NCBI GenBank assembly: GCA_964556755.1
Contig: CAZKXI010000005.1
Span: forward strand, 94,762-158,761
Origin: an uncultured Eubacteriales bacterium
Lineage (GTDB): Bacteria; Acidobacteriota; Aminicenantia; Aminicenantales; UBA4085
Direction: 5' to 3'
Length of the DNA: 64,000 nucleotides
Shown here: positions 8,382-16,198 of the stretch, one piece after another
Layout: each line of letters begins with the position of its first letter
Numbering within the stretch: position 1 is the first letter of the stretch
Translations under genes and position numbers: made by a program
Notes under the pieces: generated by a model
The model's input: only the letters and a program-made list of their open reading frames with translations
What the model was told of the DNA's origin: nothing
The model's database searches: none

Positions 8382-9050
8382 TCAGCCCTTGACCAGGAAG
8401 TAATCGACGGTCTTCTTCTTGGCCGCCGCGGCCAGCCTGGCCTTGGCTTCCTCGGCCAGGGCCTTGCTCTCGTAGGGGCCGACGCGGACCCGATAGACGG
8501 CCTTCTTGTCCCTGGTCAGGGGATCCATGACCAGGACCGGGTACCCGTCCTTCTCCAGTCTGCCGGCCAGCGTCTCGGCATCCGGCTTCTTGTCGCTGGC
8601 CGCGACCTGGACGTACCACCCGGCGGCCGACGCGGACGGCTTGGCCTTGGTCTCCGGCTTGTCCGCCGGGGCTTTGACGGCCGGCTTATCAGAGGGCTTG
8701 GCGGCGGGCTTGTCGGCCGGTCTTTCCGTCGGCTTGGCCACGGTGGGCGCCGCGGCTTGGCTCTCGCGCTGAGCGGCGGGCTTTTCCGTCGGCTTCGCCT
8801 TGGCCGGGACCGGCTCGGCCGGCCGAGCTCCCGCCGCGTCGAGGGCCCCGGTGTCCGCCCCCGCCCGGGCGGATCCGGCCGGCGTCTCGATCCGGACCGC
8901 CTTCTCGCCGGCCTTGGCCGCCAAGGCCGTCTTCTTGCTGCCCATGGAGATGCCCAGCAGGAAGACGAAGACGCACAGGCCGATCAGGCCCAGAAAGACG
9001 ACCACGAGCTGGTGCGTGGCGACCTGGAGCTCACGCTCGCCTTTGGCCAT
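8382..9050 (-). CDS. SPOR domain cell-division protein (DedD/FtsN-like)
   Basis: N-terminal TM helix, a Pro/Ala/Lys-rich linker, and a C-terminal SPOR domain (WYVQVAA...RVRVGPY). Confidence 0.75.
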   Translation of the reverse strand: MAKGERELQVATHQLVVVFLGLIGLCVFVFLLGISMGSKKTALAAKAGEKAVRIETPAGSARAGADTGALDAAGARPAEPVPAKAKPTEKPAAQRESQAAAPTVAKPTERPADKPAAKPSDKPAVKAPADKPETKAKPSASAAGWYVQVAASDKKPDAETLAGRLEKDGYPVLVMDPLTRDKKAVYRVRVGPYESKALAEEAKARLAAAAKKKTVDYFLVKG

Positions 9051-9133
9051 GTCCTCGCTCTCGTCGGGAATTCTTCATACTGATTCCATTATAGAAAGGG
9101 CTCTCGGGGAAGTCAACCGAAGACCGGGCCGGC

Positions 9134-9162
9134 TTGACTTTTGGGGGGCGAAAAACTAAAGT
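9134..9162 (+). promoter_or_regulatory. Sigma-70-like promoter TTGACT-17-TAAAGT upstream of the HU gene
   Basis: -35 at 9134-9139 and -10 at 9157-9162 with a 17-nt spacer, inside a 137-bp divergent intergenic region. Confidence 0.45.
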
Positions 9163-9187
9163 AAGCCTTTCCTCGCAGGAGACTTTC

Positions 9188-9463
9188 ATGATCAAGAACG
9201 ATATCGCCTTGGCCATCGAGAAGAAGTCGACCTTCAACGCGGCCAAATCCCTGCTGATCGTGGAAGCCGTCCTCGACGCCCTCAAGGACGCCCTGGCCAA
9301 GAAGGAAAAAGTGGAGATCCGCGGCTTCGGCAGCTTCAAGGTCATGGCCAAGAAGACCGGCTACGGCCGCGACATCCGCCGCAAGAAGCAGATCCACATC
9401 ACCGAAGGCAAGCGGATCAAGTTCCGCAGCGGCCAGGAGCTGAAGAACATCCCGTCGGAATGA
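9188..9463 (+). CDS. HU/IHF family DNA-binding protein
   Basis: 91 aa starting MIKNDIALAIEKK, with the arm motif (RGFGSF...GR..RRK..I....RI.F..GQ.LK). ATG at 9188; the longer track ORF begins upstream. Confidence 0.8.
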   Translation: MIKNDIALAIEKKSTFNAAKSLLIVEAVLDALKDALAKKEKVEIRGFGSFKVMAKKTGYGRDIRRKKQIHITEGKRIKFRSGQELKNIPSE

Positions 9464-9515
9464 CCGGGGACCGCCCCGGGCCGACGACGGCCGCCATCCG
9501 CCGCAGGAGCGTTCC

Positions 9516-10466
9516 ATGTCCCGAACCGCCCGGCCTCTGACCCCCGACGGCCTGCCCACCTATCCCCTCCGCTCCCGCCCCAGCAAGGTCGGCTTGGCGG
9601 GCTTCGCCAAGCCGCTGGCGCCCGGAGCCTCGATCGCGGAGCTCCTCGACTCGCTGCCCGGCTTCCTGGCCGCGGCCGACCTGCGCTCCTTCGTCGCCCT
9701 CTGCCGGGCCGCCCGCGACCGCGGCAAGCCTCTCGTCTGGGGCCTGGGGGCCCATGTCATCAAGGTCGGGCTGAGCCCGATCCTCATCGATCTGATGCGC
9801 GAGGGCTGGATCGGCGGGCTGGCCTTCAACGGGGCCGGCATCATCCACGACTTCGAGATCGCCTTCGCCGGCCGGACTTCCGAAGACGTCGAAGCCCAGA
9901 TCCAGGAAGGCCGGTTCGGCCTGGCCCGGGAGACGGGCGAGTTGTTGAACCGAGCCATCACCCAAGGCGCCGCCGAAGGGATGGGGCTGGGCGAGTCGGT
10001 GGGGCGGATGATCGCCGGCTCGAAGCTCCCCCATCGCGATCTCAGCCTGCTGGGGACCGCGGCCCGCCTGAGAATCCCGGCCTCCGTCCATGTCGCCGTG
10101 GGCACCGACATCATCCACGTCCACCCCCAGGCCAGCGGTGAGGCGATCGGCCAAGCCTCTCTGCGCGACTTCTTCCGCTTGGCCGGACTGGTCCGGGAGA
10201 TGAACGGCGGCGGCGTCTATCTCAATGTCGGCTCGGCCGTGCTGCTGCCCGAGGTCTTCCTGAAGGCCGTGGCTCTCGTCCGGGCCAAGGGCCACCGTCT
10301 GGACGGATTCTCGACCGCCGTCTTCGACTTCATGCGGCACTACCGGCCGTCCGAGAACGTGACCAAGAGACCGCTGGGCCGGAAGGGGCGCGGGTTCTAC
10401 TTCGTCGGGCCGCACGAGATCCTCATCCCGCTTCTCGCCGCCGCCCTCAAAGAGTCGAAGTCGTAA
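9516..10466 (+). CDS. Conserved hypothetical protein, possibly Rossmann-like; function unknown
   Basis: 316-aa ORF with codon-biased composition and no motifs I recognise. Confidence 0.5.
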   Translation: MSRTARPLTPDGLPTYPLRSRPSKVGLAGFAKPLAPGASIAELLDSLPGFLAAADLRSFVALCRAARDRGKPLVWGLGAHVIKVGLSPILIDLMREGWIGGLAFNGAGIIHDFEIAFAGRTSEDVEAQIQEGRFGLARETGELLNRAITQGAAEGMGLGESVGRMIAGSKLPHRDLSLLGTAARLRIPASVHVAVGTDIIHVHPQASGEAIGQASLRDFFRLAGLVREMNGGGVYLNVGSAVLLPEVFLKAVALVRAKGHRLDGFSTAVFDFMRHYRPSENVTKRPLGRKGRGFYFVGPHEILIPLLAAALKESKS

Positions 10467-10470
10467 CTTT

Positions 10471-10909
10471 TTCTCCCATCTCCGGGATCAAGGGCGGTTC
10501 GGGGTATCGGCCAACGGCGATATCGCCCTGGCGGGGACAGTTGCGGCAACGTCCCAACTAGGGCTGCGCAAGCTTCGCGAGGACGCAGCCTTTTTCCACG
10601 GCACTCTGAGGGCACCCAGCCCTGGCGGGGACTATCGCAGCGACGTCCCGGCTAGGGCTACGCAAGCTCCGCGGGCGCCGAGGGATGTTTGAGCACGCGA
10701 TAATCCTACGGTACCGTGATGGAGTGGGTGGTCATCATGCTCGGTAGATCTTGAATGCGGAGTTCCGCCCTTGCGGTGACGATCGAAGCGACGTCCCGAC
10801 GAGGACTGCGAAGCGCTTGCAGGCGCCGAAGGGAGCGGTGGGAAAAGGCGGGGTTGCGTCCGAAGCCGCCGGGACGATACCCTGAACCGACCTTCCGGAG
10901 AGGGGAGAA
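10471..10909. mobile_element. MITE-like repeat copy B (~439 bp) with ~32-bp terminal inverted repeats
   Basis: Left TIR TTCTCCCATCTCCGGGATCAAGGGCGGTTCGG; right TIR CCCTGAACCGACCTTCCGGAGAGGGGAGAA. The interior has three tandem ~55-bp hairpin sub-repeats (GGGAC-N10-GTCCC followed by GGCTGCGCAAGCTYCGC). No ORF. Confidence 0.7.
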
Positions 10910-10912
10910 GAC

Positions 10913-11521
10913 TTAGGATCGGTACGACTCCTCGAGAAGGAGCGCGTAGACCGCGGCGGCGCGGGCCAGGGTCTCTTCCAGGTCGCCCGACGCGTCGATG
11001 ACGTAGTCGGCCCGGCGGGCCTTCTCGGCCGGGTCCATCTGGGCCGCCAGCCGGCGCTCGGCGTCCTCCCGGCCCAAGCCATCCCGCTTCATCAGCCTTT
11101 CGATCTGCCGGTCCCGCCCGCAGGCGACCACCACGACGCGGTCGAACCAGTCCGCCAGGCCCGTCTCGTAGATCAGGGCGGCTTCGGAGACGAAGACGGC
11201 GACGCCGTCCGCCTCGGCTTGCCGGGCCGCCGCTTTCAGGCCGGCCAGGACCAGCGGGTGGGTGACGGCCTCGAGATCCCGCCGGGCCCCCTCATCGGCG
11301 AAGACGATCCGGGCCAGCGCCGGGCGGTCGATCCTCCCGTCGGGGCGCACGATCCCGCCGCCGAAGCGTTCGACGACGGCGGCATAGGCCGGCCCGCCCG
11401 GATCCATCAGCCGGCGGGCCTCCTCGTCGGCCCGGTGCAGGCGCGCCCCCCGGGAGGCGAAGACGGAGGCGACAACGCTCTTGCCGCAGGCGATGCCGCC
11501 GGTCAGGCCGACGCGCAGCAT
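10913..11521 (-). CDS. coaE: Dephospho-CoA kinase
   Basis: P-loop (GLTGGIACGKS) with CoaE-family length and layout. Confidence 0.85.
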   Translation of the reverse strand: MLRVGLTGGIACGKSVVASVFASRGARLHRADEEARRLMDPGGPAYAAVVERFGGGIVRPDGRIDRPALARIVFADEGARRDLEAVTHPLVLAGLKAAARQAEADGVAVFVSEAALIYETGLADWFDRVVVVACGRDRQIERLMKRDGLGREDAERRLAAQMDPAEKARRADYVIDASGDLEETLARAAAVYALLLEESYRS

Positions 11522-11531
11522 GGGGGGGCCG

Positions 11532-11948
11532 TCAGGGCTTGGTGACGAACTCGAAGTCCTTGTCGAACCGGACGGCCACGCCCTGCTTCTTTTTCTTCTT
11601 ATCGGGCTTCTCCAGGCGGATGGTCAGGCCGCCGATGCGCAGCTTGACCTTCTCGCCGTCGGTGGCCTGGGGCGGGATCTCGATGACCAGGTGCAGCTTG
11701 GAGCCGACGATGAGGCCGGAGTCGAGGCAGAAGTAGGCTCCCGTGGAGCTGATGTTCTGGAGAGTGGCTTCCTCCCGGAACTTCTTGCCCTGCGGCAGGC
11801 GGCCCTCGACGACGGCCCGCAGGGGCAGCTCGAAGCGCCACTCGCGGCGGCGGTTCAGCTCCTCGGCGGTGGCGGCGGAGGCGGCGGCCTTGCGGGGTCG
11901 GGTTCGTGGCTTGGCGGCGGCTGGGGTCATGGCGGATTCCCTTGACAT
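11532..11948 (-). CDS. PilZ domain protein (canonical c-di-GMP-binding motifs)
   Basis: RxxxR (RREWR) and N-x-S-x-x-G (NISSTG) motifs. Confidence 0.75.
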   Translation of the reverse strand: MSRESAMTPAAAKPRTRPRKAAASAATAEELNRRREWRFELPLRAVVEGRLPQGKKFREEATLQNISSTGAYFCLDSGLIVGSKLHLVIEIPPQATDGEKVKLRIGGLTIRLEKPDKKKKKQGVAVRFDKDFEFVTKP

Positions 11949-11952
11949 GGGA

Positions 11953-12645
11953 TTAGAACAGGGCCGAGTTGATGGCGTAGAGGGCCAGCTGGAGCCGGCT
12001 GTGGGTGTCCAGCTTGGCGTAGATGCTCTTGATATGGGAGCGGACCGTGTTCTTGCTGATGAACAGGGTGGCGGCGATCTCGTCGTTGCTGCGGCCCTGG
12101 CCGATGAGCTTGAGGACCTGGAACTCGGTCGGGGTCAGCTGGTCGAGCGTCTTCTCCTTCATGTCCCGCCCGACCACGGCGATGATGCGGTCCATGATGC
12201 TGCTCATCTTGTCGCGGGGCAGCCAGATCTCGCCCTTGGCGATGACCCGGATGGCCTCCGGCAGCTGATGGGACTGGTCGTTGAGGTCGAAGTAGCCGCG
12301 GGCCCCGACGTTGATCAGGCCGACGATCTCCTCGTGCGAGGGGATGTTGCCCATGATCAGCATCTGGGTCTTGATGGGGTCCTGGCTGATCTCCCGGATG
12401 GCCTTGCAGATCTCCCGCATGTTGGGCAGCGCTTCGATGCTGGCGAAGAGGATGACCGAAGGCTTGACTTGGCGGAGGGCCTGCATGAACGACTCGATGG
12501 TCGTCTTCTCGATGGCCGCGACCGCGATCTCGCGGTCGGCCTCGACGGCCTTGAGGATGCCGGCCAGGATCAGGTCGGAGGGGCAATAGACCAGGACCTT
12601 GATGGTCGGGGCCGGGGCGGCCGTCTCGGGCTTCTTCTTGTTCAT
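11953..12645 (-). CDS. LuxR/FixJ-family transcriptional regulator with a degenerate, probably non-phosphorylatable, receiver domain
   Basis: C-terminal LuxR-type HTH (LTPTEFQVLKLIGQGRSNDEIA...). The N-terminal receiver-like fold lacks the acidic pocket (VLVYCPS where DD is expected) and the phospho-acceptor Asp. Confidence 0.75.
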   Translation of the reverse strand: MNKKKPETAAPAPTIKVLVYCPSDLILAGILKAVEADREIAVAAIEKTTIESFMQALRQVKPSVILFASIEALPNMREICKAIREISQDPIKTQMLIMGNIPSHEEIVGLINVGARGYFDLNDQSHQLPEAIRVIAKGEIWLPRDKMSSIMDRIIAVVGRDMKEKTLDQLTPTEFQVLKLIGQGRSNDEIAATLFISKNTVRSHIKSIYAKLDTHSRLQLALYAINSALF

Positions 12646-12683
12646 GCGGGACCCTTCCAGCGAGCGCGATCTTCTCGGTCCGT

Positions 12684-12712
12684 ATCGTAATCAAACCCTC
12701 CGGGCGTGTCAA
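12684..12712 (-). promoter_or_regulatory. Sigma-70-like promoter TTGACA-17-TACGAT for the LuxR-type regulator
   Basis: Minus-strand -35 TTGACA (12712..12707) and -10 TACGAT (12689..12684), 17-nt spacer, ~40 nt upstream of the ATG at 12645. Confidence 0.5.
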
Positions 12713-12770
12713 TGGAACGGGCCGGGCGGCGGAGGCGGGAGGACGCGGACGGAGGCCGGGCTTGCCGCGG

Positions 12771-13097
12771 TCAGAGGGCTTCGGGCGAGACGCGGAAGCC
12801 CGGGTCGAGGCGCAGGCTGACCAAGCGGCCGGGGCGGCCCGGCGCCGGCGAGGGCTGGACGTCCAGCACGGTCCCCGACAGGGCCAGGCGGAAGGGCGAG
12901 CCCAGCAGGACCGTTCGCGGCACGTTGAGGGAGAAGCGGAGCCTGGCCCCCGGCCGGACCGCGGCCTTGAGCCACAGGCAGGCCTGCTCGCTGCTGACCG
13001 AGGACAGCCGGGCCGGCTCGACGAACTCGGCCGCCCGGGCGTCGCAGCCGCGGACCATGGCCGGCAGATCGAGGTCGAAGGCCCGTTCGCGGCTCAT
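12771..13097 (-). CDS. Small PilZ-like (degenerate) protein; paralog of 13105..13464
   Basis: Shares a D-A-R-[AG]-A-E-F..E.A core with the neighbouring gene but lacks RxxxR. Confidence 0.5.
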   Translation of the reverse strand: MSRERAFDLDLPAMVRGCDARAAEFVEPARLSSVSSEQACLWLKAAVRPGARLRFSLNVPRTVLLGSPFRLALSGTVLDVQPSPAPGRPGRLVSLRLDPGFRVSPEAL

Positions 13098-13104
13098 CCT
13101 CTCC

Positions 13105-13464
13105 TCACGCCTCCGGCTTGATGATGTAGCGGCTGTCGAAGTGGACCGTGACCTTCTGGCCGGCGGCGGGCTGGCGCTTCATCTCGATCATGACCACCCG
13201 GCCCTTGATGGCCATCTTGAGGGACTTGTCCACGGACAGCTTCTCCGGCAGATCGATGATCAGCTTCAGGCGGGCGCCGATGGCCACCGGGCTCTTCAGG
13301 TTGAAGGTCGAGCCCTGGTGGTTGATGAAGGTCAGGACGGTGGCTTCGCTGAATTCGGCCCCTCGGGCGTCGACGCCCTGAACCTGGGTCGGCAGGGGGA
13401 AATGGAATCCCCGTCCGCCTCCGGTCAGAGCCGAAGTCTCGTCGACAAGACCGTTCTTCATCAT
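13105..13464 (-). CDS. Small PilZ-like (degenerate) protein
   Basis: 119 aa with a GVDARGAEF...FINHQGSTF pattern reminiscent of the PilZ beta-barrel. Non-canonical motifs. Confidence 0.5.
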   Translation of the reverse strand: MMKNGLVDETSALTGGGRGFHFPLPTQVQGVDARGAEFSEATVLTFINHQGSTFNLKSPVAIGARLKLIIDLPEKLSVDKSLKMAIKGRVVMIEMKRQPAAGQKVTVHFDSRYIIKPEA

Positions 13465-13608
13465 ATCATCGTCCTCGCGATCCTCGGTCGGATCTTTTCA
13501 TTCTGGCAGGGTCTAGGATGCCATGGCCCCCCGGGGGGGTCAATCACCCCCAAGGGTGATGAAAAGGGTGAAAAACCCCTTCCGGCCGATCCCCCCTCGC
13601 CGGCTCGG

Positions 13609-13637
13609 TTGACTTCCCGGCCCCCGGGGGCTAGAAT
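13609..13637 (+). promoter_or_regulatory. Sigma-70-like promoter TTGACT-17-TAGAAT upstream of proS
   Basis: Near-consensus hexamers with a 17-nt spacer. GGAG RBS precedes the ATG at 13666. Confidence 0.55.
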
Positions 13638-13665
13638 GACCGGGCATTTCCGCCTGGAGTCCCCC

Positions 13666-15120
13666 ATGAGCCAAGATGATCGTCTGGTCCGCCAGATCAC
13701 TCCCAAATCGGAGGATTTCTCCCGCTGGTACATCGAGATCGTCCAGAAGGCCGAGCTGGCCGACTACACCCCGATGAAGGGGATGATGGTCATCCGGCCC
13801 TACGGCTACGCGATCTGGGAGGCCGTCCAGAGCGGGCTCGACCGGCGGATCAAGGACGCCGGGCACGTCAACGCCTACTTCCCCCTCTTCATCCCGGAGG
13901 GCTTCCTGAAGAAGGAGGCCGAGCACGTCCAAGGCTTCTCGCCCGAGGTGGCCTGGGTCACCATCGGCGGCCAGGAGGAGCTGGAGGAGAGGCTGGCCGT
14001 CCGCCCGACCTCGGAGGCCATCATCGGCCACATGTATTCCAAGTGGGTCAAGTCCTGGCGCGACCTGCCCGTGCTGATCAACCAGTGGGCCAACATCGTC
14101 CGCTGGGAGAAGGTCACCCGGCCCTTCCTGCGGACGACCGAGTTCCTCTGGCAGGAAGGCCACACCTGCCACGAGACGGCCGAGGAGGGCGAGGCCGAGA
14201 CGCTCCGGATCCTGGCCCTCTACAAGGAGTTCTGCGAGACGGAGCTGGCCATCCCGGTCATCGCCGGGCGCAAGACCCTGCGGGAGAAGTTCGCCGGGGC
14301 CCAGATGACCTACGCCATCGAGGCTCTGATGTCCGACGGCAAGGCCCTCCAGATGGGCACCTCCCACAACCTCGGCCAGCACTTCTCCAAGGCCTTCGAC
14401 ATCAAGTTCGAAGACCGCAGCCAGACCCTGCAGTACGTCTGGCAGACCTCTTGGGGCATGACCACCCGGACCATCGGGGCCCTGATCATGTCCCACGGCG
14501 ACGACTCCGGCCTGCGGCTGCCGCCCCGGATCGCGCCCCAGCAGGCGGTCATCGTCACCATTCCGGCGGCCGGCTGGAGGGAGACCGTCCTGCCCGTGGC
14601 CGAGAAGGTCCGGGCGACGCTGCGGGCGGCCGGGATCCGGGTGGACCTGGACGCCCGGGAGGAATTCACTCCGGGCTGGAAGTACGCCGAGTACGAGATG
14701 CGGGGCGTCCCGGTCCGGATCGAGATCGGCCCCCGCGACGTCAAGAGCGGCCAGGCGGTCCTGGTCCGGCGCGACCTGAAGAGCAAGGAGACGGTGTCGC
14801 TGGAAGCCCTCCCCGGCCGGCTGGCGGCCCTGCTGGATGAGATCCAGGCCAGCCTCCTGGCCCAGGCCCGGGCCTTCCTGGCCGCCAACACCCGGCCGGC
14901 CTCGACCTATGACGAGTTCAAGAGCATCTTGGAAGGCCCGCGCGGCTTCGTCCAGGCTCCCTGGTGCGGAGGCGAAGCCTGCGAGGACAGGATCAAGGCG
15001 GAGACGATGGCCACCATCCGGGTTCTCCCCATGGACCTGGACGGCACGCCGGTCGGCGGCGGCTGCGTCTGCTGCGGGGAGCCCGGGAAGGCTACGGCGC
15101 TCTTCGCCCGGTCCTATTGA
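13666..15120 (+). CDS. proS: Proline--tRNA ligase, archaeal/eukaryotic-type with C-terminal Zn-binding domain
   Basis: Class II aaRS motifs plus a C-terminal CGGEAC...CVCCGEPG zinc motif. 484 aa from the ATG at 13666; the track ORF extends spuriously upstream. Confidence 0.88.
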   Translation: MSQDDRLVRQITPKSEDFSRWYIEIVQKAELADYTPMKGMMVIRPYGYAIWEAVQSGLDRRIKDAGHVNAYFPLFIPEGFLKKEAEHVQGFSPEVAWVTIGGQEELEERLAVRPTSEAIIGHMYSKWVKSWRDLPVLINQWANIVRWEKVTRPFLRTTEFLWQEGHTCHETAEEGEAETLRILALYKEFCETELAIPVIAGRKTLREKFAGAQMTYAIEALMSDGKALQMGTSHNLGQHFSKAFDIKFEDRSQTLQYVWQTSWGMTTRTIGALIMSHGDDSGLRLPPRIAPQQAVIVTIPAAGWRETVLPVAEKVRATLRAAGIRVDLDAREEFTPGWKYAEYEMRGVPVRIEIGPRDVKSGQAVLVRRDLKSKETVSLEALPGRLAALLDEIQASLLAQARAFLAANTRPASTYDEFKSILEGPRGFVQAPWCGGEACEDRIKAETMATIRVLPMDLDGTPVGGGCVCCGEPGKATALFARSY

Positions 15121-15148
15121 TCGGGCCCATCACCCAAGGAGAGTGATC

Positions 15149-16198
15149 ATGGCTCAAGAGCCGATTTTCCTCGACCGCAACGAGAACAACTACGGTCCGG
15201 CCCCGGCCTGCTACGAGGTCCTCCGCAACGCCAGCCTCGACCAGATGAGCTGGTACTCCAAGGACTTCTCGCGGGGTGTCAAGAGCGCCCTGTCGGAGCG
15301 GCTGGCCAAGGACTATGGCGTGCCCGAGTCCATCGTCCTGCTCGGCTACGGCGGCGAGGATATCCTGAAGCAGACCGTCCACTGCTACCTGGCCAAGGGC
15401 GACACGATCATGATCCCGACCCACTCCTGGTGGTACTACAAGGCCATCGCGGCCGAGAAGGGCGGGTTCACGGTCGAGTACCCCATGCTGCCCGGCCCCG
15501 ACGCCTTCGTCTACGACGTCGAGGGGCTGCTCCGGCTGGCCCGCCAGCATGGTCCCCGGGTGGTCCTCATCAGCTCGCCCAACAACCCGACCGGCAACAC
15601 CCTGGAGCCGGACGCCCTGCGCCGCGTCCTGCACGAGCTGGTCGGCAGCGTCGTGGTTTTGGACGAGGCCTACTGGGGCTTCGGCGGCGCCCGCGTCGAC
15701 GTCAAGGGGCTGATCAACGACTTCCCCAACCTGATCATCATCCGGACCTTCTCCAAGTACTTCGCCATGGCCGGCGTCCGGATCGGCTACGCCTTCATCG
15801 GGCGCGGCCTGACCCAGCTGTCGCAGTTCAGCGCCCGCTACCTGGGCTACAGCCGGCTGAACGAGCGGACGGCCCTGGCCGCCCTCGACGCGCCCGACTA
15901 CTACGCCGGCATCGCGTCCCGGATGATGGAGGATAAGGAGATGCTCTACGGGGAGATCAACCGCATCCCCGGCTTCAAGGCCTACCGTTCCGACGCCAAC
16001 TTCATCCTGGCCGACATCCCCCCGGACCACAAGGACGCCCTCAAGGACTTCCTGACCCGGCGCGGCCTGATCATCAAGTTCTTCAAGAACGAGCCCTTCC
16101 TGGACTACTGCGTCCGGATCACCATCGGCACCCGGGAGCAGAACCAAGCCCTGGCGGCGGCCCTGGCCGCCTTCGCCCAGGAGAAAGGGATCCGGTGA
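15149..16198 (+). CDS. PLP-dependent class I/II aminotransferase-fold enzyme, HisC/CobD-like (aminotransferase or phospho-amino-acid decarboxylase)
   Basis: 350 aa from an ATG preceded by AAGGAGAG. Contains an SFSKYFAMAGVRIGY Lys motif and an NPTGN motif, typical of the HisC/CobD family. Confidence 0.75.
   Translation: MAQEPIFLDRNENNYGPAPACYEVLRNASLDQMSWYSKDFSRGVKSALSERLAKDYGVPESIVLLGYGGEDILKQTVHCYLAKGDTIMIPTHSWWYYKAIAAEKGGFTVEYPMLPGPDAFVYDVEGLLRLARQHGPRVVLISSPNNPTGNTLEPDALRRVLHELVGSVVVLDEAYWGFGGARVDVKGLINDFPNLIIIRTFSKYFAMAGVRIGYAFIGRGLTQLSQFSARYLGYSRLNERTALAALDAPDYYAGIASRMMEDKEMLYGEINRIPGFKAYRSDANFILADIPPDHKDALKDFLTRRGLIIKFFKNEPFLDYCVRITIGTREQNQALAAALAAFAQEKGIR

Follow-up and report, generated by a model that had tools for sequence, protein, structure and literature searches.

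A cluster of four small genes in an uncultured Aminicenantes bacterium, here called A, B, REG and C, combines three PilZ or PilZ-like proteins with an atypical LuxR-type transcription regulator. The cluster occupies positions 11532-13464 of the window, which is the whole 64,000-nucleotide stretch of contig CAZKXI010000005.1 analysed here, and the four minus-strand open reading frames (ORFs) that an earlier sequence-only reading had described in this place are indeed present. Generally, Aminicenantes are abundant in anoxic sediments and uncultured. We propose, with a probability of roughly 40%, that the locus is a transcription switch that works without phosphorylation, is linked to cyclic di-guanosine monophosphate (c-di-GMP) and is conserved throughout the class, in which C, and possibly REG as well, would sense the nucleotide, REG would drive A and B, and the A and B proteins would act as modulators. 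The four genes are as follows.

13105-13464, minus strand: gene A, a 119-amino-acid single-domain protein of predicted PilZ fold without RxxxR and [D/N]xSxxG, with an ortholog in 80 species.
12771-13097, minus strand: gene B, a 108-amino-acid degenerate PilZ paralog.
11953-12645, minus strand: REG, a 230-amino-acid aspartate-less NarL/LuxR (VpsT/CsgD-like) transcription factor.
11532-11930 (alternative start 11948), minus strand: gene C, a canonical single-domain PilZ protein of 132 (or 138) amino acids.

The gene order A-B-REG-C-coaE is common to 80 fetched species loci, which were obtained by a pattern scan with one genome per GTDB species and are the set behind the synteny, identity and operator counts given below; that scan detected a REG relative in 229 species genomes. 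In 75 of the 80 loci, C is followed downstream by coaE itself. In the window, the five genes run head to tail on the minus strand and B starts 7 nucleotides past the stop of A, while the gap between the REG stop and the C start ranges from a few to about 25 bases across loci. The median identity to the window proteins is 74.8% for REG, 63.5% for C, 49% for coaE, 45% for A and 40% for B. Judged by these values, REG is among the most constrained regulators of the lineage and outdoes the adjacent essential enzyme, coaE, in conservation.

The protein encoded by C is the one canonical PilZ of the cluster, as had been predicted. It reaches 26.8 bits against Pfam PilZ PF07238, whose gathering cut-off is 22.5, and carries both motifs, namely RxxxR at R34/R38 in the 138-residue frame (11835-11849) and NxSxxG as N65-I-S67-S-T-G70 (11739-11756). 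Both motifs are kept in 26 orthologs, in which RRREWR, the I-S pair and the Gly are invariant and the Asn is nearly invariant; to judge from this pattern, the two motifs of C are under purifying selection, and C presumably binds c-di-GMP through them. A profile of the C family gave no match to PDB sequences at E <= 0.01. C probably begins at its second ATG, at 11930, and would then have 132 residues, since both the gene calls and the ortholog consensus favour this start. In addition, the N-terminal tail of C (11850-11930) is basic, rich in Lys, Ala and Pro, and lies directly before RxxxR; C also has a conserved KKKKK loop, EKPDKKxKKQG (11586-11600), and REG likewise begins with MNKKK. The tails of C and REG might contact DNA or acidic surfaces.

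The A and B proteins are related to C and to each other by BLASTP (A-B 5e-19, A-C 2e-14, B-C 2e-9), and the hhalign comparison of the B family with the C family gives a probability of 99.3% and E = 2.8e-20 over 110 columns. Neither window protein has a Pfam match. At the positions of RxxxR and [D/N]xSxxG, A carries G15/G19 and F46/N48/G51 and B carries S2/A6 and S33/S35/Q38, and RxxxR is missing from the orthologs of either protein as well. As modelled by AlphaFold (predicted local distance difference test, pLDDT, 79; predicted template modelling score 0.71), A forms a barrel of six strands; the PDB entries closest to it in Foldseek are PilZ domains (entries 4xrn, Alg44 4rt0/4rt1, 5vx6 and 5kec among them; the proteins named include MotI, MrkH, YcgR and BcsA), with E from 2.6e-4 and a template modelling score of about 0.5; the assignment of B to PilZ comes from profile homology to C. 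Moreover, in an alignment of the A family together with window B and C (32 members), six members match Pfam PilZ at E <= 0.01, and some A orthologs are already annotated as "PilZ domain-containing protein" at NCBI. All three proteins are basic, with isoelectric points of 9.8 (A), 10.9 (B) and 10.2 (C). By homology and by the model of A, therefore, A and B are PilZ proteins in fold and descent, degenerate for canonical c-di-GMP binding, which agrees with the two degenerate paralogs proposed from the sequence alone. The DAR[AG]AEF core then reported as shared by them is real in window A and B, but since the orthologs do not retain it, it was dropped as a family signature.

The regulator REG has a C-terminal GerE/LuxR helix-turn-helix (HTH) domain (PF00196, E = 4e-19, residues 168-224), and no Pfam Response_reg match was found at E <= 1. 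It nevertheless aligns over its full length with LiaR, VraR and NarL; its NCBIfam alignments are likewise full-length but under their cut-offs. In the AlphaFold model (pLDDT 71), a (beta-alpha)5 receiver fold is followed by a long helix at 144-163 and then by an HTH of four helices, and the Foldseek matches of this model are LiaR, VraR, VpsT and NarL. When REG is aligned with LiaR (5hev), the acidic DD is replaced by C21-P22, the acceptor Asp by A68, the Thr by G99 and the Lys by L121, and this loss of phosphorylation residues holds over the 55 aligned orthologs on which all conservation figures for REG are based. Two sites deserve their coordinates.

12577-12585, minus strand: codons of C21-P22-S23, in place of the acidic DD pocket by alignment to 5hev; all 55 orthologs have C21 and S23, and at least 90% of them have P22.
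12442-12444, minus strand: codon of A68, at the position of the phospho-acceptor Asp by alignment to 5hev and 7ve6; Ala is present in at least 90% of the orthologs, and Asp occurs in no listed ortholog.

The prediction of a receiver domain with CPS in the acidic pocket and without the acceptor Asp was thus borne out by the alignment to LiaR and VraR. In addition, no histidine kinase gene was found near REG, the neighbours being proS, an aminotransferase, a CDP-alcohol phosphatidyltransferase, a nucleotidyltransferase, lpxB and coaE. On the evidence of these alignments, REG is an aspartate-less orphan pseudo-receiver for which phosphorylation is not possible at the canonical site, and the idea that it is not driven by phosphorylation stands. 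One source annotates REG as "NarL family two-component response regulator LiaR", which is misleading because the sequence excludes the phosphorylation-dependent mechanism that the name implies.

The conservation of REG is concentrated in residues 139-175, in the alpha4-beta5 stretch and in the whole HTH, all of which are invariant. This pattern points to conserved interfaces and, in combination with the model, would fit an interface with a partner or a ligand. Within this region, the linker 157-167, VVGRDMKEKTL (12145-12177), is predicted to be disordered (pLDDT < 50) and yet is invariant or nearly so, which is typical of an interface that folds upon contact. When the library was clustered at 50% identity, the REG family formed one cluster plus fragments, and no full-length relative beyond it exceeds 35% identity. 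A supposed distant member, P0165, which is 50% "identical" in its N-terminal part, was rejected as a frameshifted copy that still contains GEIWLPRDKMSSIMDRIISVV and is thus either a pseudogene or the result of faulty assembly. The top-scoring matches to the REG HTH also include predicted giant proteins of 2,800-7,700 residues with 8-18 tandem LuxR-type HTH repeats (P0154, P0157, P0158 and P0159).

The promoters of the locus divide it into two units, and the upstream one is preceded by a conserved candidate operator.

12684-12712, minus strand: REG promoter TTGACA-17-TACGAT, scoring 10/12 in the promoter scan, with 0.3 such sites expected in the region.
13544-13575, minus strand: candidate operator, with TCACCC at 13571-13566, TCACCC at 13559-13554 and an inverted GGGGTGA at 13550-13544 that abuts the -35 box.
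13515-13543, minus strand: presumed A-B promoter, with -35 TTGACC at 13543-13538, a 17-nucleotide spacer and a weak -10 CATCCT at 13520-13515 preceded by TGG.

The near-consensus promoter proposed before REG is conserved as TTGACA-17/18-TAnnAT in 51 of 54 species, in otherwise divergent and unalignable DNA. Before A, the -35 box TTGACC is nearly invariant across species and is followed 17 nucleotides on by a [CGT]AnnnT hexamer, so that the upstream consensus reads AAATTCACCCCT-nn-TTTCATCC-nnA-GGGGTGA-TTGACC, 17 nucleotides, [CGT]AnnnT. REG and C are probably co-transcribed from the strong sigma-70 promoter of REG itself, and A-B is a separate unit with a weak promoter. The conserved element upstream of A, of the form TCACCC(C)-N6-TCAYCC-N3/4-GGGGTGA, covers about 40 base pairs (13536-13580, minus strand) of otherwise divergent intergenic DNA in loci L005-L084. 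With a weight matrix, the operator exceeds 15 bits in all 75 loci that include the region upstream of A, and the 64-kilobase window holds a single copy, at 46.5 bits; no other copy was found in the window or in the 5-kilobase flanks of the loci.

A second copy of the operator together with a promoter was found before B in 23 species that have A and B as separate units (among L024-L069; e.g., L025:4351, L054:4302 and L066:4402). These copies keep the direct repeats TCACCC-N6-TCATCC and the -35 box and have lost the inverted arm. Since B has its own element and promoter in these species, the paralog and its promoter appear to have been duplicated together. The same copies bear on the nature of the element. 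An RNA hairpin, in which TCACCCC would pair with GGGGTGA, was considered and rejected, as the B copies lose the 3' arm, no compensating changes are seen and the element lies upstream of a conserved -35 box; a protein-binding DNA site is favoured because the B copies keep the repeats and drop the inverted arm. Likewise, a conserved TGGCAT upstream of A was rejected as a sigma-54 promoter, the GG-to-GC spacing being one base off and one clade lacking the GG.

Directly before the REG -35 box, tandem CTCA[CT]CCCC (TCAYCC) repeats with a 10-bp period occur in 17 of 53 species, compared with 1.9 expected by chance (L027, L028, L031, L034, L039, L045, L048, L056, L058, L060, L065, L067, L071, L073, L074, L080 and L084), which suggests that REG may be autoregulated in one clade. 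Since the element occurs only in promoters of this locus and the HTH of REG shows no variation, REG would be the most economical candidate for the factor that binds it. A conserved candidate operator before the degenerate PilZ genes also means that A and B are likely targets of REG and not only its partners. A metagenome scan with TTCACCCCNNNNNTTCATCC for further regulon members found, among the matches listed, the full element in 1 of 120, which is a copy of the same locus; the rest are chance matches. The proximal site GGGTGATTGA fits CGGGKGAKNKA, which we take to be the CsgD box, a consensus that is unconfirmed and serves as a lead only. In E. coli, GGGTGAGTTA lies upstream of csgB, and the pattern is degenerate, the window having 3 matches where chance alone would give 8.

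From these elements a working mechanism may be drawn. C would load c-di-GMP and dock on the invariant surface of REG, formed by alpha4-beta5, the WLPR base of helix 6 and the linker, and the docking would alter the dimerisation or DNA binding of REG. REG would then bind the TCAYCC operator and control A-B and, in one clade, its own promoter as well. The A and B proteins might compete for the contact of C with REG, or modulate it, without need of c-di-GMP, and a feedback loop would thereby be closed. We infer both the contact of a PilZ protein with REG and the role of REG as the operator-binding factor. Control of REG through contact with a PilZ partner, as the sequence-only reading had suggested, is consistent with the data, because the gene order is kept in 80 species, the gap between REG and C is short and there are published precedents.

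The precedents come from Pseudomonas aeruginosa, where a small stand-alone PilZ protein binds a transcription factor or a receiver domain and shifts its output, much as is proposed for this locus. TssZ binds and inhibits the regulator HinK, and the non-binding R5A/R9A variant of TssZ still does so, more strongly (PMC10912698). The single-domain PilZ protein HapZ acts on the receiver domain of SagS, as cited in PMC10912698. By analogy, the behaviour of R5A/R9A TssZ is what the naturally c-di-GMP-blind A and B might do. The comparison has its differences: HinK is LysR-type whereas REG is LuxR-type, and the present locus has three PilZ paralogs, one canonical and two naturally degenerate.

Several points weigh against the proposed switch. 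GG[DE]EF, EAL and HD-GYP motifs were found neither in the window nor in the ~800 kilobases of flanks of the 80 loci, an amount (~10 kilobases per genome) too small to be informative, and we infer the capacity of the organism to make c-di-GMP solely from the conserved motifs of C. The WLPR motif of REG offers a route for c-di-GMP input that is independent of PilZ proteins. The conserved synteny of proS, which is the divergent upstream neighbour in 72 of the 80 loci, and of coaE marks the neighbourhood as rigid in general. Moreover, the REG promoter of the window itself has no TCAYCC repeats, and the protein that occupies the operator could be some other factor, or else A and B themselves, which are basic.

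The route through WLPR leads to a rival explanation that we regard as somewhat unlikely, namely that REG senses c-di-GMP directly, like VpsT of Vibrio cholerae (3kln, 3klo), with an intercalated nucleotide dimer at W141/R144 driving dimerisation and the PilZ proteins being co-regulated outputs or independent effectors. The site concerned is the following.

12214-12225, minus strand: codons of W141-L142-P143-R144, placed on WLTR of VpsT by phmmer alignment to 3kln; all four residues are invariant in the REG orthologs.

REG and VpsT share a receiver-like N-terminal domain, a LuxR HTH and, between them, a sixth helix, with Trp and Arg at its base (WLPR and WLTR, respectively), and neither is known to depend on phosphorylation. 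The phmmer alignment covers REG 116-227 and VpsT 107-217 (E = 8e-14), and 3klo, the structure of VpsT with c-di-GMP, comes fifth among the Foldseek matches of the REG model. The predicted helix of REG (144-163) starts right after WLPR, like the sixth helix of VpsT, which stabilises the dimer (PMC3359988), and M151 of REG aligns with I141 of VpsT, a residue of the c-di-GMP-dependent dimer contact; in VpsT, R134A abolishes c-di-GMP binding and I141E abolishes c-di-GMP-dependent dimerisation (PMC3359988). Against this, the published c-di-GMP motif of VpsT-type regulators is W[F/L/M][T/S]R (PMC10333796), and although the W, L and R of REG fit it, Pro replaces Thr/Ser at the third position, so that REG falls outside the motif. 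W-x-x-R is also common in this branch, since 36 of 73 of the nearest outgroup representatives carry it with E, P, D or G in the third position, and no c-di-GMP binder is known among them. Furthermore, the identity between VpsT and REG is only ~23%, the confidence of the REG model is moderate, and VpsT has no flanking PilZ genes whereas REG has three. VpsT also retains the acceptor Asp, which REG lacks. On the strength of the alignment, REG could still sense c-di-GMP by itself via WLPR.

The comparison with CsgD of Escherichia coli and Salmonella cuts both ways. Like REG, CsgD is an atypical receiver-HTH regulator, matched by BLASTP at 7e-11 in the C-terminal half, and it is active without phosphorylation; its residues at the WLPR position are YFTQ, and it fails to bind c-di-GMP (PMC10333796), which speaks against direct sensing. 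At the same time, CsgD is the precedent (PMC10333796) for a second rival, according to which REG is ligand-independent and constitutively competent, like unphosphorylated CsgD, and is set by its abundance alone, c-di-GMP acting downstream via C on an unrelated target. The strong, near-consensus REG promoter, the loss of every phosphorylation residue and, as a lead, the fit of GGGTGATTGA to the supposed CsgD box would be in keeping with such a regulator. We consider it unlikely, since the invariance of residues 139-175, C21, H104 and the alpha4-beta5 face argues for retained sensing or docking and not for a passive scaffold, and the tight coupling of REG and C in 80 species also speaks against it. 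Other aspartate-less or atypical NarL-family response regulators resemble REG in having a receiver fold without acidic pocket or acceptor Asp and in being orphans without a partner kinase; unlike them, REG combines ~75% conservation across the class with a fixed association with PilZ genes.

A decidedly doubtful elaboration takes REG as the hub of a c-di-GMP circuit not described before, for one invariant surface of which C and the c-di-GMP-blind "decoys" A and B would compete; REG would induce the decoys via the TCAYCC operator, which would make the locus a feedback or threshold device, maybe with direct sensing at WLPR. It is very improbable that the receiver pocket of REG has been re-purposed for redox chemistry, a metal (Cys21, His104, Cys80) or a small metabolite unrelated to c-di-GMP, the PilZ genes being regulon cargo. 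The residues C21 (12583-12585), C80 (12406-12408) and H104 (12334-12336), together with S23, E105, E106 and D120, do not vary among the orthologs and are situated in or close to the loops of the canonical phosphorylation pocket, C21, C80 and H104 might form a metal or redox site, and the neighbours proS and coaE are metabolic; there is, on the other side, no positive sign of a ligand, and c-di-GMP is the messenger suggested by the three PilZ paralogs that surround REG. Finally, frozen synteny of functionally unlinked neighbours, which the equally fixed and unrelated housekeeping genes proS and coaE would allow, is scarcely credible given three paralogs of one signalling domain flanking one regulator, short stop-to-start gaps and an operator restricted to the promoters of this locus.

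The surroundings of the proposed switch are completed by the last gene of the conserved REG-C-coaE run and by proS, which starts at ~13666 on the plus strand and is divergent from A.

10913-11521, minus strand: coaE, encoding dephospho-CoA kinase of 202 amino acids (Pfam CoaE, E = 2.6e-49).

Before proS, a divergent promoter-like sequence, TTGACT-17-TAGAAT, is present at 13609-13637 on the plus strand, and in many other species a TTGACAATT box occupies the equivalent site of the opposite strand. The DNA of the region has 66-69% G+C, and many long antisense ORFs are found because of this high G+C. The overlapping ORFs at 11743-12690 (plus strand, 315 amino acids) and 11927-12712 (minus strand, 261 amino acids), which lie in other frames than REG, were accordingly rejected as genes and regarded as by-products of the base composition. 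No Rfam RNA family was found in 9000-16000 at E <= 1 or in the whole window at gathering scores. Proteins identical to those of the window occur on Logan and NCBI contigs, and these and the names given to the orthologs place the window in Candidatus Aminicenantes (Acidobacteriota). Several loci of Aminicenantes type (L009, L022, L024-L026, L043, L052 and others) are labelled "uncultured Eubacteriales", "Clostridiales bacterium" or "Candidatus Desulfaltia" and are probably mislabelled.

Our searches of the literature returned no paper that connects Aminicenantes with c-di-GMP or reports an A-B-REG-C module. The individual parts of the module belong to known kinds. What is new is that they occur in a fixed combination, that REG has lost all phosphorylation residues and at the same time carries a VpsT-type site with Pro in it, that a dedicated operator precedes the two naturally degenerate PilZ genes, and that conservation is exceptional across an uncultured class. 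The module unites three elements that have been studied separately, namely a pseudo-receiver regulator resembling VpsT and CsgD, a PilZ adaptor of the canonical type and PilZ paralogs that have degenerated naturally, and its short defined operator and four small proteins make it testable. The locus could, therefore, reveal what degenerate PilZ proteins are used for, whether the W-x-P-R variant binds c-di-GMP and how receivers that have lost phosphorylation are controlled.

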